Sequence record: OK040907
Strand: one strand, 5' to 3'
From: Enterobacteria phage Ac3
Length of the DNA: 64,000 nt
Numbering within the stretch: position 1 is the first letter of the stretch; every line of letters starts with the position of its first letter. Below the pieces are notes generated by a model that made no database searches, was not told the origin of the DNA, and worked only from the letters and a program-made list of their open reading frames with translations. The position numbers were made by a program, and so were the translations under genes. Positions 40,550-62,106 of the stretch are shown here, in pieces.

Positions 40550-40789
40550 TTAAGCTTTCTTGGCAACTTTCCAGTCAGCTTTGAACTGATCGACGTCGCT
40601 GTGATGGATCCAGAAGCCGGAGCTGGAACCGTCTTCATAGAGTGGGCAACCGTCACATTCATCTTCCCAACCCATATCACGCAGGAGATGTTCTGCCTTT
40701 TCGATCAGCTCGGAATCTTTACCAATGATGTTGAAGTACCATTTGCCGCGTACTTCAGAGTCTTTAATGGACTGACGCTGCAGACGCAT
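40550..40789 (-). CDS. small GC-rich early protein with CxxC-like pair
   Basis: ORF track 40550..40879 (TTG start); real start taken as ATG at 40789 preceded by GAGGAG and an early promoter; 79 aa, E. coli-like codons. Confidence 0.55.
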   Translation of the reverse strand: MRLQRQSIKDSEVRGKWYFNIIGKDSELIEKAEHLLRDMGWEDECDGCPLYEDGSSSGFWIHHSDVDQFKADWKVAKKA

Positions 40790-41542: not shown

Positions 41543-41773
41543 TTACTGTTCGATGAGACCCATGTAGAATTCCGCATCTTCGGAGTCCATACCGTCGCAG
41601 TATTCGTTAGCCATGAAGCGGGTCAGGTCCTCCAGTGGACCCTCAATAACAATGCTAAAGTTACAATAGTTCGGGTCATCATGGATGGAAGTAATAGACA
41701 GCTCCGGGTAACGGTTGCGGATAATTTCCTCGATGTATTCGAAATCAACGATGTCGATGTCTACTTTAGCCAT
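41543..41773 (-). CDS. small GC-rich acidic early protein
   Basis: ORF track 41543..41836; start moved to MAKVDIDIV (76 aa) preceded by AAGAGGAA and an early promoter. Confidence 0.55.
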
Positions 41774-41816
41774 ATTATTTTCCTCTTTGATCATCAGCAG
41801 TATTGCCGATAGTTGT

Positions 41817-41846
41817 ATAGTACCATGGAAGGACAAGGATGTAAAC
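41817..41846 (-). promoter_or_regulatory. T4-type early promoter (GTTTAC, 18-nt spacer, TACTAT)
   Basis: minus strand GTTTACatccttgtccttccatggTACTATAcaactatc; adjacent to the gene 32 terminator hairpin. Confidence 0.65.
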
Positions 41847-41871
41847 AGTTTTGTGAAAAAATTTTTGAAAT

Positions 41872-41896
41872 AAAAAAGGGGACCTCTAGGGTCCCC
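41872..41896 (-). terminator. gene 32 terminator hairpin GGGGACCC-TAGAG-GGTCCCC plus T-run
   Basis: perfect stem on minus strand followed by TTTTTT immediately after the gene 32 stop. Confidence 0.65.
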
Positions 41897-41919
41897 AATT
41901 AATTAGTAATTATAATCTA

Positions 41920-42828
41920 TTACAGGTCGTTCAGGAGGTCATCCAGGTCGGTATCGTCGGCGCTGGAAGAGGAGCCGCTAGAGGAAGACATGAAGTCATC
42001 TTCGGTTTTAGTGTTAAAATCGTCAACGTTAAAGGCGTCCAGGTCATCCGCTACCTTATCGGCTTTCTTAGCCGCAGTAGCCGCAGCACCGCCCATCACA
42101 GCAGTGCCCATAACCTGACCGAACTTGGTGTTGAGTTCCTCAAAAGATTTAAATTTATCTTTGGAGGTCATCTCAGACAGATCTACCATCTGCTCAAACA
42201 GTTCTTTTTGGAAAGATTCGTCATCGATGTTCGGGATAGCAGACTGGTTCAGAAATTTGCTCTCGTCGTAATTGGAGAAACCAGAAACCTGTTTAACCTT
42301 CAGAACGAAGTTGGCACCCTCCCACGGGCAGGTGACGTCGACCGGGGTTTCACCCATCTCCACGTCCACCGCAATCATAGCGTTAATTTTATCCCAGATT
42401 TTCTTACCAAAGCGGTATTTGAAAACCTTACCCTCGTTTTCTGGCGCAGCTGGATCCTTTACAACCAGGATGTTAGCCCAGTAAGAGGTTTTACGTTTCA
42501 CCAGGCCGTATTCTTTATTGTCGGTATTATACAGATCGTTTTTGGAAATGTACTGACACACCGGGCAAGAGTCGTAGTCGCCGTGGGTGGAAGAACAGTT
42601 TTCGATGTACCATTTGCCGTTTTTCTTAAAACCGTGGTTCACCAGGATAGCGAACGGAGCCTGTTCGTCATTTTTGCTCGGCAGGAAGCGGATCACCGCC
42701 TGACCGTTGCCCGCGTTGTCCAGTTTCAGTTTCCATTCGCCTTTGTCCTCAGAGCTGAAGCCACCTTTGTTGCCCGCCAGCTTGGCCATCTGCGCAGCCA
42801 GTTCTGCCGTGCTCTTACGCTTGAACAT
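41920..42828 (-). CDS. 32: single-stranded DNA-binding protein gp32
   Basis: 302-aa ORF; N-terminus [17 protein letters not shown]; zinc-ligand region [12 protein letters not shown]; acidic Ser/Asp-rich C-terminus. Confidence 0.95.
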
Positions 42829-45151: not shown

Positions 45152-45159
45152 TATAAATA
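45152..45159 (+). promoter_or_regulatory. T4-type late promoter TATAAATA upstream of gene 34
   Basis: exact TATAAATA about 35 nt upstream of the gene 34 start. Confidence 0.65.
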
Positions 45160-45193: not shown

Positions 45194-48100
45194 ATGGCCG
45201 AGATTAAAAGAAAGTTCAGAGCAGAAGATGGTCTGGACGCAGGTGGTGATAAAATAATCAACGTAGCTTTAGCTGATCGTGCCGTAGGAACTGACGGTGT
45301 AAACGTTGATTACTTAATTCAAGAAAACACAGTTCAACAATATGATCCAACTCGTGGATATTTAAAAGATTTTGTAATCATTTATGATAACCGCTTTTGG
45401 GCTGCTATAAATGATATTCCAAAACCAGCAGGAGCTTTTAATAGCGTACGATGGAGAGCGTTACGCACTGATGCAAACTGGACAACTGTTTCGTCAGGAC
45501 CTTATCAATTAAAATCAGGCGAATCGATTTCAGTTAACACCGCAGCGGGTAATGACATTACATTTACTTTGCCATCTTCTCCAATTGATGGTGATACTAT
45601 CGTTCTCCAAGATATTGGAGGAAAACCTGGAGTTAACCAGGTTTTAATTACAGCTCCGGTACAAAGCATTGTAAATTTTAGAGGTCAACAAGTACGCTCA
45701 GTACTAATGACTCATCCAAAATCACAGATAGTTTTAATTTTTAGTAATCGTCTGTGGCAAATGTATGTTGCTGATTATAGCAGAGAAGCGGCAGTTGTAA
45801 CACCGGCAAGTCTTTATCAAGCGCAATCAAACGATTTTATCGTGCGTAGATTTACTTCTGCTTCAGCAATTAATATTAAACTTCCTAGATTTGCTAATCA
45901 TGGGGATATTATTAATTTTGTTGATTTAGATAAATTAAATCCACTTTATCACACAATTGTTACCACATATGATGAAACAACTTCAGTACAAGAAGTTGGA
46001 ACTCATTCCATTGAAGGCCGTACATCTATTGATGGTTTCTTAATGTTTGATGATAATGAGAAATTGTGGAGATTGTTTGACGGGGATAGTAAAGCACGTT
46101 TACGCATTATAACGACTAATTCTAATATTCGTCCAAATGAAGAAGTCATGGTATTTGGCGCGAATAATGGAACAACCCAAACAATTGAACTTCAGCTTCC
46201 AACTGATATTTCTATCGGTGATACTGTTAAGATTTCCATGAATTATATGAGAAAAGGACAAACAGTTAAAATCAAAGCTGCCGGTGAAGATAAAATTGCT
46301 TCTTCAGTTCAATTGCTGCAATTTCCAAAACGTTCAGAATACCCACCTGAAACTAAATGGGTGACTGTTCAAGAATTAGTTTTTAATGGCGAAACCAATT
46401 ATGTTCCAGTTTTACAGCTTGCTTATATCGAAGATTCCGATGGAAAATATTGGGTTGTACAGCAAAACGTTCCAACTGTAGAAAGAGTAGACTCTTTAAA
46501 TAATTCTACTAGAGCAAGATTAGGCGTAATTGCTTTAGCTACACAGGCTCAAGCTAATGCTGATCTAGAAAATTCTCCACAAAAAGAACTGGCAATTACT
46601 CCAGAAACGTTAGCTAATCGTACTGCTACAGAAACTCGTAGAGGTATTGCAAGAATAGCAACAACTGCGCAAGTAAACCAGGATACCACATTCTCTTTTG
46701 CAGATGACCTTATCATCACTCCTAAAAAGTTGAATGAAAGAACTGCTACAGAAACTCGTAGGGGTGTCGCTGAAATTGCTACGCAACAGGAAACTAATAC
46801 AGGTACTGATGATACGACAATCATCACTCCTAAAAAGCTTCAAGCTCGCCAAGGTTCTGAATCATTATCTGGTATTGTAACTTTTGTATCTACTGCAGGT
46901 GCTACTCCAGCTTCTAGCCGTGAATTAAATGGTACGAATGTTTATAATAAAAACACTAATAATTTAGTTGTTTCGCCAAAAGCTTTGGACCAGTATAAAG
47001 CTACGCCTACTCAACAGGGTGCAGTAATTTTAGCAGTTGAAAGTGAAGTAATTGCTGGTCAAAGTCAAGAAGGATGGGCAAATGCTGTTGTGACGCCAGA
47101 AACGTTACATAAAAAGACATCAACTGATGGAAGAATTGGTTTAATTGAAATTGCTACGCAAAGTGAAGTTAATACAGGAACTGATTATACTCGTGCAGTC
47201 ACTCCTAAAACTTTAAATGACCGTAGAGCAACTGAAAGTTTAAGTGGTATAGCTGAAATTGCTACACAAGTTGAATTCGACGCAGGCGTCGACGATACTC
47301 GTATCTCTACACCATTAAAAATTAAAACTAGATTTAATAGTACTGATCGTACTTCTGTTGTTGCTCTATCTGGATTAGTTGAATCAGGAACTCTCTGGGA
47401 CCATTATACCCTTAATATTCTTGAAGCAAATGAGACACAACGTGGTACACTTCGTGTGGCTACACAAGTTGAAGCTGCTGCTGGAAAATTAGATAATGTT
47501 TTAATAACTCCTAAAAAGCTTTTAGGTACTAAATCTACTGAAGCACAAGAAGGTGTTATTAAAGTTGCAACACAAACCGAAACTGTTGCTGGAACATCGG
47601 CAAATACTGCTGTATCTCCAAAAAATTTAAAATGGATTGTGCAGAGTGAACCTACTTGGGCAGCTACTACTGCAGTAAGAGGCTTTGTTAAAACTTCATC
47701 TGGTTCAATTACATTCGTTGGTAATGATACAGCCGGTTCTACTCAGGACTTAGAGCTATACGAGAAAAATAGCTATGCAGTATCACCATACGAATTAAAC
47801 CGTGTATTAGCAAATTATTTGCCATTAAAAGCAAAAGCTGCAGATAGTAATTTATTGGATGGTCTAGATTCATCTCAGTTCATTCGTAGGGATATTGCGC
47901 AGACGGTTAATGGTTCACTAACCTTAACTCAACAAACGAATCTGAGTGCCCCTCTTGTATCATCTAGTACTGCTACGTTCGGTGGATCAGTTTCAGCAAA
48001 TAGTACATTAACTATTTCTAATACTGGAACAGCAACTCGATTGATTTTTGAGAAAGGACCTCAAACTGGAACAAACCCAGCCCAAACGATGACTGTTAGA

Positions 48101-49063
48101 GTGTGGGGAAATCAATTTAGTGGGGAATTAGATACAACACGTTCTACCGTATTTGAAGTTAGTGATGAAACATCTAGTCATTTTTATTCTCAGCGCAATA
48201 AAGCCGGAAATATAACATTTAATATCAACGGTACAGTAACACCGATAAATGTTAATGCTTCAGGAACATTGAATGCAAATGGCGTAGCAACATTTGGTAA
48301 TTCAGTCACTGCAACTGGTGAAATTATTTCTCGAAGCGCAAATGCTTTCCGTGCTATTAACGGAAATTATGGTTTCATTGTTCGCAATGATGGATCAGTA
48401 ACGAATTTTATGCTTACTGCATCGGGTGATCAGACTGGTGGATTTAACGGATTACGCCCATTAGCTATTAATAATGCATCTGGTCAAGTAACGATTGGTG
48501 AAAGCTTAATCATCGCCAAAGGTGCTACTATAAATTCTGGTGGTTTAACTGTTAACTCGAGAATTCGTTCTCAAGGTACTAAAACATCTGACTTATATAC
48601 ACGTGCGCCAACATCTGATACTGTAGGATTCTGGTCAATTGATATTAACGATTCAGCTACTTATAACCAGTTCCCAGGTTATTTTAAAATGGTTGAAAAA
48701 ACTAATGAAGTGACTGGTCTTCCATATTTAGAACGTGGCGAAGAAGTTAAATCTCCTGGTACACTGACTCAGTTTGGTAACACACTTGATTCGCTTTACC
48801 AAGATTGGATTACTTATCCAACAACGCCAGAAGCGCGTACCACTCGCTGGACACGTACATGGCAGAAAACCAAAAATTCTTGGTCAAGTTTTGTTCAGGT
48901 ATTTGATGGAGGTAATCCTCCTCAACCATCTGATATTGGTGCTTTACCATCTGATAATGCTACAATGGGTAATCTTACTATTCGTGATTTCTTACGAATT
49001 GGTAATGTTCGCATTATTCCTGACCCAGTGAATAAAACTGTTAAATTTGAATGGGTTGAATAA
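45194..49063 (+). CDS. 34: long tail fibre proximal subunit gp34
   Basis: 1289-aa ORF (T4 gp34 length); repetitive fibre sequence. Confidence 0.95.
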   Translation: MAEIKRKFRAEDGLDAGGDKIINVALADRAVGTDGVNVDYLIQENTVQQYDPTRGYLKDFVIIYDNRFWAAINDIPKPAGAFNSVRWRALRTDANWTTVSSGPYQLKSGESISVNTAAGNDITFTLPSSPIDGDTIVLQDIGGKPGVNQVLITAPVQSIVNFRGQQVRSVLMTHPKSQIVLIFSNRLWQMYVADYSREAAVVTPASLYQAQSNDFIVRRFTSASAINIKLPRFANHGDIINFVDLDKLNPLYHTIVTTYDETTSVQEVGTHSIEGRTSIDGFLMFDDNEKLWRLFDGDSKARLRIITTNSNIRPNEEVMVFGANNGTTQTIELQLPTDISIGDTVKISMNYMRKGQTVKIKAAGEDKIASSVQLLQFPKRSEYPPETKWVTVQELVFNGETNYVPVLQLAYIEDSDGKYWVVQQNVPTVERVDSLNNSTRARLGVIALATQAQANADLENSPQKELAITPETLANRTATETRRGIARIATTAQVNQDTTFSFADDLIITPKKLNERTATETRRGVAEIATQQETNTGTDDTTIITPKKLQARQGSESLSGIVTFVSTAGATPASSRELNGTNVYNKNTNNLVVSPKALDQYKATPTQQGAVILAVESEVIAGQSQEGWANAVVTPETLHKKTSTDGRIGLIEIATQSEVNTGTDYTRAVTPKTLNDRRATESLSGIAEIATQVEFDAGVDDTRISTPLKIKTRFNSTDRTSVVALSGLVESGTLWDHYTLNILEANETQRGTLRVATQVEAAAGKLDNVLITPKKLLGTKSTEAQEGVIKVATQTETVAGTSANTAVSPKNLKWIVQSEPTWAATTAVRGFVKTSSGSITFVGNDTAGSTQDLELYEKNSYAVSPYELNRVLANYLPLKAKAADSNLLDGLDSSQFIRRDIAQTVNGSLTLTQQTNLSAPLVSSSTATFGGSVSANSTLTISNTGTATRLIFEKGPQTGTNPAQTMTVRVWGNQFSGELDTTRSTVFEVSDETSSHFYSQRNKAGNITFNINGTVTPINVNASGTLNANGVATFGNSVTATGEIISRSANAFRAINGNYGFIVRNDGSVTNFMLTASGDQTGGFNGLRPLAINNASGQVTIGESLIIAKGATINSGGLTVNSRIRSQGTKTSDLYTRAPTSDTVGFWSIDINDSATYNQFPGYFKMVEKTNEVTGLPYLERGEEVKSPGTLTQFGNTLDSLYQDWITYPTTPEARTTRWTRTWQKTKNSWSSFVQVFDGGNPPQPSDIGALPSDNATMGNLTIRDFLRIGNVRIIPDPVNKTVKFEWVE

Positions 49064-49071
49064 GAGGTATT

Positions 49072-50187
49072 ATGGAAAAATTTATGGCAGAGTTTGGACA
49101 AGGATATGTCCAAACGCCATTTTTATCGGAAAGCAATTCAGTAAGATATAAAATAAGTATAGCGGGTTCTTGCCCGCTTTCTACCGCAGGACCATACGTT
49201 AAATTTCAAGATAATCCTGTAGGAAGTCAAACATTTAGTGCAGGTCTTCATTTAAGAGTTTTTGACCCTTCCACGGGAGCATTGGTTGATAGTAAGTCAT
49301 ATGTTTTTTCTACTTCAAATGATACAACATCTGCTGCTTTTGTTAGTTTTATGAATTCTTTTTCAAGCAATAGACTTGTTGCTATATTAACTAGCGGAAA
49401 GGTTAATTTTCCTCCTGAAGTAGTATCTTGGTTAAGAACGGCAGGAACATCTGCTTTTCCATCTGATTCTTTATTGTCAAGATTTGACGTATCATATGCT
49501 GCCTTTTACACTTCTTCTAAAAGAGCTATCGCACTAGAGCATGTTAAACTGAGTAACAGAAAAAGCACAGATGACTATCAAACTATATTAGATGTAGTAT
49601 TTGATAGTTTAGAAGATGTTGGAGCGACAGGATTTCCTAAAAGAACATATGAAAGCGTTGAGCAATTTATGTCAGCTGTTGGTGGAACTAATAACGAAAT
49701 TGCACGTCTACCTACAGCATCTGCAATAAGTAAACTTTCTGACTATAATTTAATTCCTGGAGATGTTCTTTATCTTAAAGCACAACTATATGCTGATGCT
49801 GATTTATTAGCGTTGGGAACTACTAATATTTCAATTCGTTTTTATAATGCGTCGAATGGATATATTTCCTCGACACAAGCTGAGTTTACCGGACAAGCTG
49901 GATCTTGGGAATTAAAAGAAGATTATGTAGTTGTTCCTGAAAATGCAGTAGGATTTACGATATACGCACAGAGAACTGCACAAGCGGGTCAAGGCGGTAT
50001 GAGAAATTTAAGCTTTTCTGAAGTGTCAAGAAATGGTGGCATTTCAAAACCTGCTGAGTTTGGCGTCAATGGTATTCGAGTTAATTATATCTGTGAATCT
50101 GCTTCACCTCCGGATATAATGGTACTTCCTACGCAAGCATCGTCTAAAACTGGTAAAGTGTTTGGGCAGGAATTTAGAGAAGTTTAA
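49072..50187 (+). CDS. 35: long tail fibre hinge protein gp35
   Basis: 371-aa ORF following gene 34. Confidence 0.9.
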   Translation: MEKFMAEFGQGYVQTPFLSESNSVRYKISIAGSCPLSTAGPYVKFQDNPVGSQTFSAGLHLRVFDPSTGALVDSKSYVFSTSNDTTSAAFVSFMNSFSSNRLVAILTSGKVNFPPEVVSWLRTAGTSAFPSDSLLSRFDVSYAAFYTSSKRAIALEHVKLSNRKSTDDYQTILDVVFDSLEDVGATGFPKRTYESVEQFMSAVGGTNNEIARLPTASAISKLSDYNLIPGDVLYLKAQLYADADLLALGTTNISIRFYNASNGYISSTQAEFTGQAGSWELKEDYVVVPENAVGFTIYAQRTAQAGQGGMRNLSFSEVSRNGGISKPAEFGVNGIRVNYICESASPPDIMVLPTQASSKTGKVFGQEFREV

Positions 50188-50249: not shown

Positions 50250-50906
50250 ATGGCTGATTTAAAAGTAGGTTCAACAACTGGAGGCTCTGTCATTTGGCAT
50301 CAAGGAAATTTTCCATTGAATCCAGCCGGTGACGATGTACTCTACAAATCATTTAAAATATATTCAGAATATAATAAACCACAAGCAACTGATAACGATT
50401 TCGTTTCTAAAGCTAATGGTGGTACTTATTTAAATAAAGTAATTTTTAATAAAGGAATGACTGTTCCTGGTGCTGGGTCAGGTGACAACGGTATTTTTGC
50501 CGGTCCTGGTGATAATGCCACATATGATACTACAAATATGGATATTGTTTCATGGTATGGTATCGGCTTTAAATCATCACAAGGGGCAGCAGGTAGAACT
50601 GTAGTAATTAACACACGAAACGGAGATATTAGCTCAAAGGGTGTAATTGAAGCATCACAAATACGCGCAACTTCGTTATCACCAGTAAATAATTATGACC
50701 TTACGAGAAAAGATTATGTTGATGGGGCAATAAATATTGTTACAACAAATGCAAACTCTAGAGTATTACGCTCTGGAGACACTATGACAGGAAATTTAAC
50801 TGCGCCAAACCTTTTTTCACAGAATCCTGCATCTCAACCCTCGCATGTTCCGCGATTTGACCAAATCGTAATTAAGGATTCTGTTCAAGATTTCGGCTAT
50901 TATTAA
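50250..50906 (+). CDS. 36: long tail fibre proximal connector gp36
   Basis: 218-aa ORF; SGDTMTGNL fibre repeat motif. Confidence 0.9.
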   Translation: MADLKVGSTTGGSVIWHQGNFPLNPAGDDVLYKSFKIYSEYNKPQATDNDFVSKANGGTYLNKVIFNKGMTVPGAGSGDNGIFAGPGDNATYDTTNMDIVSWYGIGFKSSQGAAGRTVVINTRNGDISSKGVIEASQIRATSLSPVNNYDLTRKDYVDGAINIVTTNANSRVLRSGDTMTGNLTAPNLFSQNPASQPSHVPRFDQIVIKDSVQDFGYY

Positions 50907-50914
50907 GAGGACTT

Positions 50915-53900
50915 ATGGCTACTTTAAAACAAATACAATTTAAAAGAAGCAAAACCGCAGGAGCACGTCCTGCCGCTTCAGTATTAGCCGAAGGTGAATT
51001 GGCTATAAACTTAAAAGACCGTGTACTTTTTACTAAAGATGACCAAGGAAATATTATTGATCTGGGTTTTGCTAAGGGCGGTAGTATTGACGGGAATGTT
51101 ATTCATATAGGAAACTATAACCAAACTGGTGATTATACTTTAAATGGCGCATTAACTCAGACAGGTAATTTTAATTTAACTGGTATTGCTCGAGTAACTC
51201 GCGATATTATTGCCGCTGGGCAGATTATGACTGAAGGCGGAGAACTTATTACAAAAAGTTCAGGTACAGCGCATGTTCGTTTTTTCGATGGCAATAGTCG
51301 CGAACGCGGAATCATTTATGCCCCGGCTAATGATGGTTTAACTACACAAGTACTTAATATCAGGGTTCAAGACTATGCCGCTGGTAGCGAAACGACTTAT
51401 CGATTTTCAGGCAGTGGCCTATTTACTTCACCTGAAGTATCAGCATGGAAATCTATTTCGTCTCCACAAATTCTGACCGATAAAGTTATTACAAATGGGA
51501 AGAAGACAGGCGATTATGATATCTATTCATTATCAAATAACACTCCAATGGCAGAAGGCGAAACGGCTATTAACCACCTCCGTGTTATGCGAAATGCTGT
51601 AGGAGCAGGTATTTTCCACGAAGTTAATGTTAATGACGGAATAACCTGGTATTCCGGACATGGCTTAGACACTTATCTTTGGTCGTTTAACTGGGCCGGT
51701 GGATTGAAAGCTGGTCATTCTATTGCTGTGGCCTTCCTCACGGTTCTAAAATTATTCAGAAATGGGCACGGCTTCTATTGCTTTAGGAGAGTAGATGATA
51801 CCGGATTTAAATGGCATCAGGATGGATATTATTTCAGCGTTAATAATGGAACAAAAACATTTTTATTTAGTCCTAGTGAAACAACTAGCCTAAGAAAATT
51901 TGTAGCTGGATATTCTACTAACGGAACCGATTTAACGACTCCTCCAACTGAAAACTATGCTCTTGCTACTGTCGTGACATATCACGATAATAACGCGTTT
52001 GGAGATGGTCAGACTCTTTTAGGATATTATCAAGGCGGTAATTATCATCACTATTTCCGCGGTAAAGGTACTACAAACATTAATACTCACGGCGGTTTGT
52101 TAGTTATTACTCCCGGTAATGTAGATGTGGTCGGCGGCATGGTTACCATTGATGGTAAAAATTATGCTTCTAGTGTGCTTTTTAAAGGAAATACTACAGG
52201 ATATAGTTCAGTTGATAATATAGAGCTCAAAGTTTGGGGTGACACTTTTAATACAGTAGGTGGTACTCGTAAAAACGTAATGGAAACATCTGATGCTACT
52301 GGCTGGATGCATTATATTCAACGAACTACAGCAGGTAAAGTTGAGTCCTATTTAAATGGTACCATGAATGTAAATGAAAGCATCAACGTCAGTAAAGAAG
52401 TTAACGCCTCTGGCACTATTGCTAGTAATGCTGTCAATGCGCTTCGCATTTGGAATGCAGATTATGGAGCTATTTTTAGACGTTCAGAAGGAAGTCTTCA
52501 TATTATTCCAACTGCTTATGGTGAAGGCAAAAATGGTGATATCGGTCCACTTCGCCCGTTTAGTATGGCTTTAGATACCGGTAAAGTTACTATTCCAGAT
52601 TTACAATCAAGTTACAATACGTTCGCTGCGAACGGCTATATTAAATTTGTTGGTCATGGAGCGGGTGCCGGCGGTTATGACATTCAATATGCTCAAGCGG
52701 CTCCTATTTTCCAGGAAATTGATGGATGCTGTAAGCAAATATTTATCCCTATTGTTAAACAGAAGTTTTTAAATGGTAAAGCCGTTTGGTCTTTAGGTAC
52801 TGAAATTAATTCTGGTACATTTGTTTTACATCATCTGAAAGAAGATGGACACAAGGTCATACATCAAGATTTAATGCTGACGGTACAGTTAATTTCCCTG
52901 ATAACGTTCAAGTCGGTGGTGGTGAAGCTACTATTGCTCGTAATGGTAATATTTTCTCGGATATTTGGAAACTGTTTACTTCTGCTGGAGACACTACAAA
53001 TATTCGGTGATGCAATAGCTACTCGTGTTGCTAAAGAAGGTGATACGATGACCGGTAGGTTGACTTTATCAGCTGGAAATGATGCACTTGTTTTAACTGC
53101 AGGCGTGGGTGCTTCATCACACATCCGTAGTGATGTAGGTGGTATAGGTAACTGGTATATAGGCAAAGGCGGCGGCGACAATGGTCTAGGTTTTTACAGT
53201 TACATTACACAAGGCGGTGTATACATAACAAATAACGGCGAAATAGCGCTTTCTCCTCAAGGTCAAGGAACATTTAATTTTAATAGGGATCGCCTTTATA
53301 TAAATGCTAGTCAATGGGTTGCACATAAATCTGGCGCTTGGGGTGACCAATGGGGCTTAGAAGCTCCTGTATTTGTGGATTTTGGTAGTGTCGGTAATGA
53401 TAGTTATTATCCTATTATTAAAGGAAAATCTGTTATTACGAATGAAGGATACATATCTGGCGTTGATTTTGGTATGCGTCGCATTACTAATACATGGGCA
53501 CAAGGTATTATTCGTGTAGGTAACCAGGAAAACGGTTCTGACCCACAAGCTATCTATGAATTCCACCACAATGGAGTTATGTATGTTCCTAACATGGTTA
53601 AAACCGGAGCAAGATTATCGGCTGGCGGTGGTGACCCGGTGTGGACTGGACCATGTCTTGTTATTGGTGATAATGTATCCGGATTAGTTCATGGTGGTGA
53701 TGGGCGAATTAACATGGTTGCAAATGGAGCGCATATTGCTTCGTGGTCTTCATCTTATCATTCTCATCCTGGCCTTTGGGATTCAAACGGTGCTTTGTGG
53801 ACGGAAGTTGGCAAAGCAGTTATTTCTCATGGTCATTTAGTTCAGGCGAATGACAACTATTCAACATATGTCCGCGATGTTTATGTCCGCTCTGATATTC

Positions 53901-54226
53901 GTGTTAAAAAGAACCTCGTTAAATTTGAAAATGCTTCTGAGAAGCTTTCTAAAATTAACGGTTACACTTATATGCAGAAACGTGGAACAGATGAAGAAGG
54001 TAATCAGAAATGGGAACCTAACGCAGGTTTGATAGCTCAAGAAGTTCAAGATATTTTACCAGAATTCGTTGAAGGTGACCCGGATGGTGAAGCTTTACTT
54101 CGTTTGAACTATAACGGTGTAATTGGTTTAAATACAGCTGCAATCAATGAGCATACTGCAGAAATTGCAGAACTTAAGTCAGAGATTGAAGAGCTTAAAA
54201 AATTAGTTAAATCATTGTTAAAATAA
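50915..54226 (+). CDS. 37: long tail fibre distal subunit gp37 (T2-type, C-terminal intramolecular-chaperone-like domain)
   Basis: 1103-aa ORF; DTMTGRL repeat; C-terminal SDIRVKKNL…[15 protein letters not shown]…coiled coil resembles autoproteolytic chaperone domains; internal segment 52810..53010 looks frame-shifted (see findings). Confidence 0.88.
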
Positions 54227-54231
54227 TAAGA

Positions 54232-54245
54232 GGGGCTTCGGCCCC
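54232..54245 (+). other. stem-loop GGGGC-TTCG-GCCCC between genes 37 and 38
   Basis: perfect 5-bp stem with TTCG loop; no strong T-run, so probably an RNA structure rather than a terminator. Confidence 0.4.
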
Positions 54246-54257
54246 TTGGAGGTTTAT

Positions 54258-55031
54258 ATGGCAGTTGAAGGACCGTGGGTAGGATGGTCTGCGAGGGTAC
54301 AGACTGGAGATCCTTGGATGGGTGGTGCCGCGCAGAGATTGAGAATGGGAATTCCGTTTTGGATGAGTAATATGATAGGTCGATCTGTTGAAATAATTCA
54401 CACGCTTGGAGCAGACCATAACTTCAATGGTCAATGGTTCCGAGATAGATGTTTTGAGGCAGGTAGTACACCTATAGTGTTTAATATCACTGGAGATTTA
54501 GTATCATATTCTAAAGATGTTCCTTTATTCTTCATGTACGGAGATACACCGAATGAATATGTTCAGTTGAATATACACGGCGTAGCGATGTATGGCCGTG
54601 GCGGTAATGGCGGTAGCAATAGTCCTGGTTCAGCTGGAGGTCATTGTATTCAAAACGATATTGGTGGGAGACTAAGAATTAATAATGGCGGAGCTATTGC
54701 AGGCGGTGGCGGCGGTGGCGGTGGCGGTAACAGGGGTCGACTAGTATTTGGTGGTGGCGGTGGTCGCCCATTCGGTAGTGGCGGGTCTTCCCTCTCTCAC
54801 ATGAGTGCTGGTGCAACCGCCGGCACCATTTACGCTCCGGGTGCAGGATCTGTCGGTGAGGGGTCTCTTAGTGCATATACAGGCGGGTCTGGTGGTGAAG
54901 TTGGCTCCGCAGGAGGTAGAAATACTCACGGTACCGGTACAGAATATGACGGCGGAGCTGCTGGTTATGCTGTTATAGGGTCGTCTCCAACGTGGATAAA
55001 TGTTGGAGCAATATATGGTCCAAGAGTATAA
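54258..55031 (+). CDS. 38: receptor-recognising adhesin gp38 (T2-type, glycine-rich motifs)
   Basis: ORF track starts at 54246; ATG at 54258 follows GGAGG; conserved N-terminal half then poly-Gly blocks ([25 protein letters not shown]) typical of T2/K3-type gp38 adhesins. Confidence 0.85.
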
Positions 55032-55076: not shown

Positions 55077-55733
55077 ATGGCAGCACCTAGAATATCACTT
55101 TCGCCCTCTGATATTCTATTTGGTGTTCTAGATCGCTTGTTCAAAGATAACGCTACCGGGAAAGTTCTTGCTTCCCGGGTAGCTGTCGTAATTCTTTTGT
55201 TTATGATGGCGATTGTTTGGTATAGGGGAGATAGTTTCTTTGAGTACTATAAGCAATCAAAGTATGAAACATACAGTGAAATTATTGAAAAGGAAAGAAA
55301 TGCACGCTTTGAATCTGTCGCCCTGGAACAACTCCAGATAGTTCACATATCATCTGAGGCAGACTTTAGTGCGGTGTATTCTTTCCGCCCTAAAAACTTA
55401 AACTATTTTGTTGATATTATAGCATATGAAGGAAAATTACCTTCAACAATAAGTGAAAAATCACTTGGAGGATATCCTGTTGATAAAACTATGGATGAAT
55501 ATGCAGTTCATTTAAATGGACGTCATTATTATTCCAACTCAAAATTTGCTTTTTTACCAACTAAAAAGCCTACTCCCGAAATAAACTACATGTACAGTTG
55601 TCCATATTTTAATTTGGATAATATCTATGCCGGAACGATAACCATGTACTGGTATAGAAATGATCATATAAGTAATGACCGCCTTGAATCAATATGTGCT
55701 CAGGCGGCCAGAATATTAGGAAGGGCTAAATAA
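55077..55733 (+). CDS. t: holin T
   Basis: 218-aa ORF (T4 T length); single N-terminal TM segment VAVVILLFMMAIVWY; follows gene 38. Confidence 0.9.
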   Translation: MAAPRISLSPSDILFGVLDRLFKDNATGKVLASRVAVVILLFMMAIVWYRGDSFFEYYKQSKYETYSEIIEKERNARFESVALEQLQIVHISSEADFSAVYSFRPKNLNYFVDIIAYEGKLPSTISEKSLGGYPVDKTMDEYAVHLNGRHYYSNSKFAFLPTKKPTPEINYMYSCPYFNLDNIYAGTITMYWYRNDHISNDRLESICAQAARILGRAK

Positions 55734-61842: not shown

Positions 61843-62106
61843 TCACAGCTCAATTTCAGCGATTTTCATTTCATTGCTGTTGATTGCTTCCTTCAGAGAA
61901 TCGGACAGAATGACGTTCCAATGATCGTTCATATGACCGTTCACCAGACGGGTGATTTCCTCCGGGGTGGAGAAGTACGGCTGATCAGATTCCCAGTGAG
62001 ACAGACCCAGACGGGTATAGATCATACCTTCGTCATCAGAGGAGTATTCTACGCTGACGAATTCATCAGTGATTTTGTGTTTTGCATAGTAGAATTTAAA
62101 CTTCAT
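61843..62106 (-). CDS. small GC-rich early protein
   Basis: ORF track 61843..62205; start moved to MKFKFYYAKHK (87 aa) downstream of an early promoter; CGT/CTG/CCG codons. Confidence 0.55.
   Translation of the reverse strand: MKFKFYYAKHKITDEFVSVEYSSDDEGMIYTRLGLSHWESDQPYFSTPEEITRLVNGHMNDHWNVILSDSLKEAINSNEMKIAEIEL

Follow-up and report, generated by a model that had tools for sequence, protein, structure and literature searches.

The distal tail-fibre tip module of coliphage Ac3: a T2/S16-type gp37-gp38 adhesin with OmpA as predicted receptor

The gp37 tip and the gp38 adhesin determine which bacteria a T-even phage infects, and this module has been swapped to re-target phages. In phage S16, gp37 ends in an intramolecular chaperone (IMC) of 113 aa that is cut off at a mapped site (DLNVS^SDRRIKK, with ^ marking the cut), and the IMC must be removed before the gp38 docking surface is exposed (PMC7917993). 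Three tryptophans of gp38 serve as docking prongs that enter pockets in gp37 (PMC6851490). Proteolytic processing of gp37 has also been reported in T2 and T6 (PMC3157838), and the Ser/Lys dyad of IMC domains has been demonstrated by mutagenesis (PMC3742443). The layout of gp38, in which glycine-rich motifs alternate with four hypervariable segments (HVS) and are followed by a conserved C-terminal motif, has been defined, and as few as one to three substitutions in the HVS can replace the receptor or widen receptor use, as in PST versus T6 and SV76 versus T2 (PMC3157838). Receptors have been assigned to several adhesins of this type. For PP01 it is OmpC of O157, contacted by loops D and E (PMC12892980); Ac3 has been reported to be unable to infect O157:H7 (PMC6027323). 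FL12, FL18 and FL20 depend on OmpA, as shown on deletion mutants, and a tree of 223 gp38s indicates that closely related C-terminal domains have their receptor in common (PMC12032242).

The window analysed here, a stretch of 64,000 nucleotides (OK040907), comes from the complete genome of coliphage Ac3. Its g37 DNA is 100% identical to Ac3 record AF060870 over 3312 nt, and the encoded gp37 exactly matches both UJJ74628.1 and AAC62007.1, the latter deposited in 1998. The gp38 protein is an exact match to UJJ74629.1 and 99.6% identical to the 1998 record. AF060870, which contains g37 and g38 of Ac3, is attributed to Tetart, Desplats and Krisch (1998). Compared with the record of 1998, one TGT (Cys) codon in HVS4 of gp38 and one intergenic base are absent from the window, which shows 12 further differences, mostly at third positions, in the 3' end of g36 and the spacer after g38.

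With high confidence, nucleotides 53891-55031 are read as the module for the distal tip of a long tail fibre of the T2/S16 type, with OmpA as the predicted receptor (Table 1). The module carries the catalytic motif and the domain layout of its family, to which it clearly belongs, and it is a modular mosaic. This is a textbook arrangement: the system and the exact Ac3 sequence have already been published (the sequence in 1998), and the finding itself adds no new biology. The value of the analysis is practical rather than conceptual, and lies in a concrete, testable prediction of the receptor and of a narrow 'type 2' mode of binding it.

Table 1. Features of the Ac3 gp37-gp38 tip region, in window positions.
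Feature	Position	Strand	Basis
Gene 37, distal long-tail-fibre subunit, 1103-aa precursor	50915..54226	+	ORF, AF060870 identity, Pfam Gp34_trimer and Peptidase_S74
DVYVR, aa 988-992, last five residues of predicted mature gp37	53876..53890	+	Aligns with S16 DLNVS^S and fPS DVYIR^S
Intramolecular chaperone (IMC) / autocleavage domain, gp37 aa 993-1103, 111 aa	53891..54223	+	Pfam PF13884; S16, MYRF and 8JOV matches
g37-g38 intergenic element: hairpin GAGGGGC-UUCG-GCCCCUU (54230-54247), then Shine-Dalgarno GGAGG (54248-54252)	54230..54252	+	Sequence and fold
Gene 38, T2/S16-type receptor-recognising adhesin, 257 aa	54258..55031	+	Pfam GP38 and Gp38_N, PDB 9V85/6F45_D, PHROG 2056, UJJ74629.1
gp38 N-terminal attachment domain, aa 1-44, W7/W20/W35, PP01/RB68/FL18/FL23 type	54258..54389	+	Alignment of ten gp38s; S16 alignment
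gp38 conserved central beta-helix part, aa 45-112	54390..54593	+	84-99% identity in ten gp38s; domain by 6F45_D homology
gp38 specificity domain: HVS1-4 interspersed with glycine-rich motifs (predicted polyglycine-II sandwich)	54594..54950	+	Alignment, per-segment identities
HVS1	54609-54647	+	
HVS2	54729-54749	+	
HVS3	54777-54881	+	
HVS4	54897-54950	+	
gp38 conserved C-terminal segment, 26 residues, returning to beta-helix	54951..55028	+	Conserved columns; S16 and PP01 alignments

The C-terminus of gp37 had been described in a first-pass annotation as an intramolecular chaperone or autoproteolytic domain on the strength of three peptides, all of which lie in the 1103-aa reading frame of gene 37 (aa 993-1022, nt 53891-53980; aa 1038-1052; aa 1084-1098). 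That description is supported by an above-threshold Peptidase_S74 match (PF13884; E=1.5e-12; score 48 bits, cutoff 22; first 57 of 58 profile positions covered) at the end of the fibre protein. The Pfam core covers aa 993-1052 of 1103, and the domain ends in a heptad-like helix. More than 20 PHROG families of tail-fibre proteins match the IMC segment at their extreme C-termini. The domain does not begin at position 53850, where the module had first been placed; this position is codon 979 of g37, where a spurious ORF in another frame also begins, and the IMC starts at 53891.

Searched against the PDB, gp37 matched S16 6F45_A with E=1e-40. The IMC domain alone recovered 6F45_A (E=1e-31), the MYRF ICA 7DC3 (E=0.0035) and 8JOV (E=0.009), the remaining rows up to E<=10 being coiled-coil noise; endosialidase and T5 structures were not reached by this search at that threshold. 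The catalytic motif was therefore judged from these three alignments, the start of the Pfam profile and the literature. Ser993 falls on profile position 1 and Lys998 at +5 (SDIRVK) within DVYVR^SDIRVKK, and SDIRVK aligns with SDRRIK of S16, SDERLK of 8JOV and (A)DLRAK of MYRF. The Ser/Lys(+5) dyad, whose absence was to have counted against the chaperone assignment, is thus present, and the motif RDVYVR^SDIRVKK recurs in FL18, FL08, FL23, RB68, VEc74 and PP01. By homology, gp37 is predicted to be cut between nt 53890 and 53891 (R992/S993), and DVYVR probably forms the final beta-strand of the gp38 docking face.

It is conceivable that the mature fibre instead keeps the S74-like domain without cleavage, using it to cap the structure or to help form the dock for gp38. 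The cut in Ac3 is itself predicted from sequence, and the 1998 T6 record has Asn at the Lys+5 position (SDSRLN), hinting that the motif is not universally intact, though that record holds an ambiguous base. Retention of the domain is nevertheless very improbable, given an intact dyad and flanking motif identical to those of many relatives, the reported processing of T2 and T6 gp37 (PMC3157838) and the exposure of the S16 docking surface only after IMC removal (PMC7917993).

Gene 38 likely starts at 54258, with an ATG preceded by the Shine-Dalgarno sequence GGAGG, and not at the TTG at 54246 of the mechanical ORF list. With similarity that vastly exceeds chance, its product fills both family models, Pfam GP38 (PF05268; E=7e-70; score 235.7 bits, cutoff 25; all 218 profile positions) and Gp38_N (PF21721; E=4e-20; score 72 bits, cutoff 25; all 40 positions), and matches PHROG 2056 ('tail fiber protein; host specificity'; 2e-103). 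Both solved adhesin structures are matched over aa 1-254, namely PP01 9V85 (E=5e-78) and S16 6F45_D (E=1e-52), in agreement with the earlier description of gp38 as a glycine-rich T2-type adhesin. Glycine makes up 25% of the protein overall, and 35% of aa 113-257 versus 12% of aa 1-112, with nine consecutive glycines at aa 149-157 and five at aa 165-169. At the DNA level, G+C rises to 0.52 in the specificity domain, and GGYGGYGGY repeats flank the HVSs. The whole C-terminal domain aligns with few gaps to the two crystal structures (6F45, 9V85), and a polyglycine-II sandwich fold is predicted on this basis. The combination of family models, three docking tryptophans, alternating glycine motifs and HVSs, and a neighbouring g37 with an S74 domain is that of a T2/S16-type adhesin.

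The alternative of a T4-type arrangement, in which the receptor is bound by the C-terminus of gp37 and gp38 serves only as an assembly chaperone that does not enter the virion, draws on the gene name and position (g38 after g37, as in T4) and on legacy labels in some relatives' records, such as 'distal long tail fiber assembly catalyst'. Its probability is negligible. Pairwise BLASTP found no similarity between the window gp38 and T4 gp38 (best E=0.77), the latter matching no Pfam family; alignment with T4-type chaperones had been named as the result that would overturn the adhesin assignment, and strong full-length matches to adhesin families and structures were obtained instead. The window gp37 likewise lacks a T4-type Collar or His-repeat tip and the Phage_fiber domain, whereas T4 gp37 has these features, with Collar and Phage_fiber domains in place of Peptidase_S74. 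A T4-type gp38 chaperone is thus refuted at the sequence level.

The N-terminal half of gp38, which had been called conserved, consists of two parts: the label holds for aa 45-112 (84-99% identity) but not for aa 1-44, which occur as discrete, very different types sharing 43-52% identity. The attachment domain of Ac3 is 100% identical to those of FL18 and FL23 and 43% identical to that of FL12, and its type is named here after its PP01/RB68/FL18 relatives rather than as 'K3-like'. W7, W20 and W35 are invariant across the ten aligned gp38s and align with the S16 tryptophans. Across the same ten proteins the glycine blocks are invariant and the intervening segments variable; one segment singled out earlier corresponds to aa 178-208 (nt 54789-54881), between a 13-residue block and GGSGG. 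The proposal that these inter-glycine segments are the likely specificity determinants is in line with what is seen when gp38s whose receptors are known are compared, and with published work (PMC3157838; PMC12032242; PMC12892980).

The type of the gp37 tip co-varies with that of the gp38 N-terminus in a lock-and-key manner. In FL18, FL23, FL08 and RB68, the gp38 N-terminus is 86-100%, the gp37 tip 80-84% and the IMC 95-96% identical to the corresponding parts in the window; in FL12 and FL33 the values are 43-52%, 20-24% and 32%, respectively. Ac3 is a clean natural example of a two-level modularity already in the literature, with replacement of the entire g37-g38 cassette while the backbone stays the same, and shuffling of attachment and specificity domains within gp38. 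When Ac3 is set against RB68, the g37-g38 cassette is the only divergent block in an otherwise identical backbone.

The C-terminal specificity domain of Ac3 gp38 is most similar to those of the OmpA type 2 phages FL12 (95% identity), FL20 (88%) and FL18 (84%), followed by the Tsx binders T6 and FL23 (75-76%) and the OmpF-type and OmpA type 1 adhesins (46-52%, with FL08 of OmpA type 1 at 52%). HVS2 matches those of FL12 and FL20 at 100% and that of FL18 at 71% identity, and for HVS3 the identity to FL12 is 94%, whereas both segments share 43-46% with Tsx binders. The OmpA-type-2 and Tsx groups do not differ in HVS1, and HVS4 is 68-84% identical to those of OmpA-type-2 phages. Ac3 shares its HVS set with the type 2 subgroup (FL12/FL18/FL20), and the other receptor groups compared reach at most 76%. 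Because this set is almost identical to those of FL12, FL20 and FL18, OmpA is predicted as the Ac3 receptor, bound in the narrow-range 'type 2' mode. Such an alignment with gp38s of known specificity had been proposed in the first-pass annotation; with the OmpA-dependent phages closest, the prediction goes further than the annotation did. No receptor established by experiment for Ac3 was found in the literature covered, which took in the running text of PMC3157838.

Since few HVS substitutions can change the receptor, 95% identity is no guarantee that the receptor is the same. Ac3 may thus have kept the T2-type architecture and use a receptor other than OmpA (Tsx, another porin, LPS or a dual requirement), through private changes in HVS3 and HVS4 or a different attachment domain. 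HVS1 is indeed 100% identical to that of Tsx binders, HVS4 shows no more than 68-84% identity to its OmpA-type-2 counterparts, the window lacks the HVS4 Cys and carries an extra Leu in HVS3, receptor use is known to be altered by few such substitutions (PMC3157838), and the specificity of PP01 is decided by loops in the same part of the domain (PMC12892980). This reading is unlikely, though it carries some weight, given the far closer agreement of HVS2 and HVS3 with FL12 than with Tsx binders and the sharing of receptors among related C-terminal domains in the 223-gp38 tree (PMC12032242). OmpA remains the preferred prediction.

Two features are private to Ac3 gp38: the extra Leu in HVS3, and the missing HVS4 Cys, which is kept by every OmpA-type-2 and Tsx-type relative examined. 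Private changes also occur in g37, where three Ac3-only compensated frameshifts place three segments of the gp37 shaft, as deposited, out of frame; if real, these would put normal folding of the fibre in question. Pattern scans of IMG/VR found no match to the Ac3-specific g37 indels, a result that is uninformative because the control pattern for the consensus version matched only one contig. It is doubtful that the genome-sequenced Ac3 stock carries a host-range variant adhesin, in which a PP01-type attachment domain bears HVSs of OmpA type 2 and the loss of the HVS4 Cys changes the receptor or the OmpA loop variants recognised. It is likewise doubtful that the out-of-frame segments of gp37 are real and tolerated rather than sequence errors.

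The genes are ordered g36-g37-g38-t, with the g37 stop at 54226 and the g38 start at 54258. The late-promoter-like sequence TATAAATA is found only before g34, g36 and t, which is consistent with joint transcription of g37 and g38 from a site upstream of g36. The hairpin between g37 and g38 is stable (-13 kcal/mol) and statistically undistinctive against shuffled sequences (z=-1.31), and no functional role is claimed for it.

By homology with the described systems, the last 111 residues of gp37 (S993-K1103) would nucleate and register trimerisation of the C-terminal gp37 beta-helix. Once the trimer had folded, the Ser993/Lys998 dyad would cut the chain at R992/S993, and the chaperone trimer would depart to expose the DVYVR tip. 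As in the 6F45 complex, one gp38 monomer would then dock on the trimeric tip through its N-terminal helical bundle, with W7, W20 and W35 entering three equivalent hydrophobic pockets. In the virion, a single gp38 would be mounted on the gp37 trimer and bind an outer-membrane receptor, its putative polyglycine-II sandwich presenting HVS1-4 at the fibre tip to an outer-membrane protein, predicted to be OmpA in the type 2 mode. The cleavage, the 3:1 gp37:gp38 stoichiometry and the receptor are each proposed for Ac3 from its relatives.

Set against known systems, Ac3 shares with T4 the position of g37 and g38 between g36 and t and a homologous gp37 shaft, but T4 gp38 is unrelated in sequence and T4 gp37 ends in a Collar and His-repeat needle without an S74 domain. 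In Peptidase_S74 proteins such as the K1F endosialidase, the T5 L-shaped fibre and the MYRF ICA, as in Ac3, the domain closes the C-terminus of a trimeric fibre, contains the Ser/Lys(+5) dyad and ends in a helical zipper. Beyond the T-even group the sequence similarity is only distant (MYRF, E=0.0035), and in Ac3 removal of the domain would create a dock for a second protein rather than merely mature an enzyme or fibre. The OmpA 'type 2' adhesins of FL12, FL20 and FL18 (Lutz et al. 2025) have a specificity domain closely similar to that of Ac3, apart from its extra HVS3 Leu and missing HVS4 Cys, whereas FL12 and FL20 have the other attachment-domain type (43-52% identity) and a gp37 tip only 20% identical. 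PP01, an E. coli O157 phage, provides the best solved-structure match for gp38 (9V85) and the same type of gp37 tip and IMC (78% and 95% identity), with different HVS sequences. The S16 gp37-gp38 tip complex (6F45) has the same two-gene architecture, IMC with S-D-x-R-x-K, three docking tryptophans and beta-helix, and a polyglycine sandwich with HVS loops like the one predicted for Ac3; it differs from Ac3 in the loops themselves and in its pre-cut residues (DLNVS against DVYVR), and the Ac3 gp37 tip carries a 12-residue insertion.

The distal long-tail-fibre subunit gp37 is indicated by sequence comparison to end in a chaperone or autoproteolytic domain, as a first-pass annotation had claimed. 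Pfam Peptidase_S74, the intramolecular chaperone (IMC) domain, matches residues 993-1052 (48 bits; cutoff 22), and over its last 190 residues gp37 aligns with the S16 gp37 of crystal structure 6F45 (E=1e-40; E=1e-31 for the last 117 alone). Weaker, correctly registered matches were obtained to the MYRF autocleavage domain (7DC3; E=0.0035) and a tail fibre (8JOV; E=0.009), and S993-D-I-R-V-K998 aligns to S/A-D-x-R-x-K in all three. The catalytic dyad of this family is a Ser and the Lys five residues on, as found by mutagenesis of MYRF and attributed also to endosialidases (PMC3742443); S993 and K998 fall in the corresponding register. All peptides quoted in the annotation lie in the reading frames it gave, but the domain starts at nt 53891 (Ser993), 41 nt downstream of the proposed 53850. 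The mapped cut in S16 gp37 (DLNVS^SDRRIKK) frees a 113-residue chaperone and uncovers the gp38 docking surface (PMC7917993). By alignment, Ac3 gp37 is predicted to be cut at DVYVR992^S993DIRVKK, which would free 111 residues. In T2 and T6, proteolytic processing of gp37 is followed by gp38 capping (PMC3157838). Over 20 different PHROG families of tail-fibre proteins have a match to this C-terminal segment at their own extreme C-terminus, the distribution expected for a folding module that is portable. The 1998 T6 record (AF052605) reads DVYIR-SDSRLNINK at the gp37 C-terminus, with Asn in place of the expected catalytic Lys(+5) and an ambiguous residue close by; either the record is in error, or the autocleavage motif has a variant form here.

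The accompanying gp38 was correctly recognized as a glycine-rich T2-type adhesin. It matches Pfam GP38 (E=7e-70) and Gp38_N (E=4e-20), S16 gp38 over residues 1-254 (6F45_D; E=1e-52) and, over residues 37-257, the receptor-binding domain of PP01 gp38 (9V85; E=5e-78; PMC12892980). Ten aligned gp38s all keep W7, W20 and W35 as well as the glycine blocks, between which the sequence varies; in 6F45, the three matching tryptophans enter symmetry-related pockets of the gp37 trimer (PMC6851490). The segment singled out by the annotation corresponds to residues 178-208, inside hypervariable segment (HVS) 3. Glycine makes up 35% of residues 113-257 vs 12% of residues 1-112, with G9 and G5 runs, and G+C over the glycine-rich half is 0.52 vs ~0.36-0.42 in neighbouring tail-fibre genes. 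GGYGGYGGY DNA repeats, encoding glycine, lie on either side of the HVSs. Such G-rich motifs were reportedly proposed by Tetart et al. in 1998 as recombination sites for adhesin specificity swaps. A T4-type gp38, the outcome that the annotation had itself named as contrary to its reading, is excluded, since no similarity to T4 gp38 was found (best E=0.77) and T4 gp37 lacks S74, having Collar and Phage_fiber domains instead.

The two proteins appear to be matched at their interface. Relative to the window, FL18 and FL23 are 100% identical in the gp38 attachment part (residues 1-44), 82% in the gp37 tip (last 100 mature residues) and 95% in the IMC; the respective values are 86%, 80-84% and 95-96% for FL08 and RB68, 43%, 20% and 32% for FL12, and 52%, 24% and 32% for FL33. 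FL20 and T6 are 50-52% identical to the window in the attachment part. The pairing of tip and attachment-part identities indicates that, in the six phages compared for both, gp37 tip type co-varies with gp38 N-terminus type, which supports the docking model. By the same alignments, the type of specificity domain in a gp38 is independent of the type of its attachment domain.

The C-terminal domain of gp38 is closest to those of 'type 2' OmpA phages (alignment identity 95% for FL12, 88% for FL20 and 84% for FL18), followed by the Tsx phages FL23 and T6 (75-76%), the OmpA type 1 phage FL08 (52%) and the OmpF-type phages FL33 and RB68 (46-47%). With this domain alone, tblastn returned Ac3 first, then ~10 phages at 90-95%, including FL12 (93.8%), with FL20 and FL18 further down (86% and 79% over the matched part). 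In the alignment, HVS2 and HVS3 are 100% and 94% identical to those of FL12. FL12, FL18 and FL20 form a narrow-host-range group thought to contact OmpA loop 3a/3b with loop 2a, their plating is lost upon ompA deletion in MG1655, and receptors are common to related C-terminal domains in a tree of 223 gp38s (PMC12032242). Given this closeness and receptor sharing, OmpA is the probable receptor of Ac3, with the caveat that the window gp38 has two private HVS changes; receptors can switch through one to three such changes (PMC3157838).

The window gp38 has lost, in frame, a TGT (Cys) codon at 54920/54921 in HVS4, leaving only C65 and C130. The residue, in GGR[C]NT, is kept in the 1998 Ac3 record (GenBank AF060870), FL12, FL20, FL18, FL23 and T6, and its loss may mark a host-range variant or stem from a difference between stocks.

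Both genes belong to a T-even tail-fibre operon of standard layout in the late region of the window, with Pfam assignments Gp34_trimer, Phage_T4_gp36, Peptidase_S74, Gp38_N, GP38 and Phage_holin_T. T4 late-promoter-like TATAAATA boxes precede only g34 (box at 45152), g36 (50219) and t (55051); their absence before g37 and g38 is consistent with co-transcription of g36, g37 and g38 as one late unit. The g37-g38 spacer (54230-54252) contains a UUCG-tetraloop hairpin (GAGGGGC-UUCG-GCCCCUU, -13 kcal/mol; not distinctive against shuffles, z=-1.31), with the GGAGG ribosome-binding site of g38 directly 3' of it; the 1998 record has one additional base immediately 5'. An unexpected assignment in the hinge protein gp35 (residues 58-127; 49243-49452) is Pfam ILEI, an interleukin-like EMT inducer / FAM3-type domain, slightly over the curated cutoff (31.1 bits vs 27; E=3.5e-7).

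Coordinates of the tail-fibre operon, patches divergent from RB68 (RB68 annotation for the three smaller) and Ac3-only g37 indels
Feature	Position	Strand	Detail
g34	45194-49063	+	ORF
g35	49072-50187	+	ORF
g36	50250-50906	+	ORF
g37	50915-54226	+	1103 aa
g38	54258-55031	+	257 aa counted from ATG
holin t	55077-55733	+	ORF
Mosaic patch	40551-40786		frd.1
Mosaic patch	41546-42823		frd.3 to gene 32, ssDNA-binding protein
Mosaic patch (largest)	50956-55028		g37 codon 14 to last g38 codon
Mosaic patch	61846-62101		hypothetical ORF, ndd.6-denB interval
g37 indel cluster	51729-51792		-1, -1, +2
g37 indel cluster	52724-52745		-2, +2
g37 indel cluster	52848-53006		-1, +1

Between 40000 and 64000, the window is identical to RB68 outside four patches, the largest of which is sharply bounded and flanked by 100% identical backbone (~8 kb upstream, 6.8 kb downstream). 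Within the 3' part of g36 (50699-50870), 12 sites distinguish the 1998 record from the window; as counted from coordinates, 11 are third codon positions. Taken together, this cassette-sized divergence and the g36 differences make the sequenced genome look like an RB51/RB68-type backbone with an Ac3 g37-g38 cassette, bounded by two apparent crossovers, one within the conserved g36/g37 junction and one at the stop codon of g38.

Relative to RB68, VEc74, CE1 and PP01, g37 contains three clusters of Ac3-only, locally cancelling indels, which put ~21, 7 and 52 codons out of frame. In the alternative frame the peptide conserved in the family can still be read nearly perfectly; read in frame, the DNA there gives a hydrophobic string. 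The pattern looks like a sequencing or editing error, yet the 1998 and genome records are exactly alike over the clusters, and the change may instead be real and tolerated.

The g37 DNA is 100% identical to AF060870, and g38 differs by a single 3-nt indel. Exact-sequence look-up equates gp37 with UJJ74628.1 and AAC62007.1, and gp38 with UJJ74629.1, under the label Enterobacteria phage Ac3. AF060870 was deposited in 1998 with the annotations 'distal tail fiber large subunit gp37' and 'tail fiber adhesin gp38'. The module is a long-characterized system, its sequence and interpretation public since 1998, and its gp38 has the GRM/HVS organization defined by Trojet et al. (PMC3157838).
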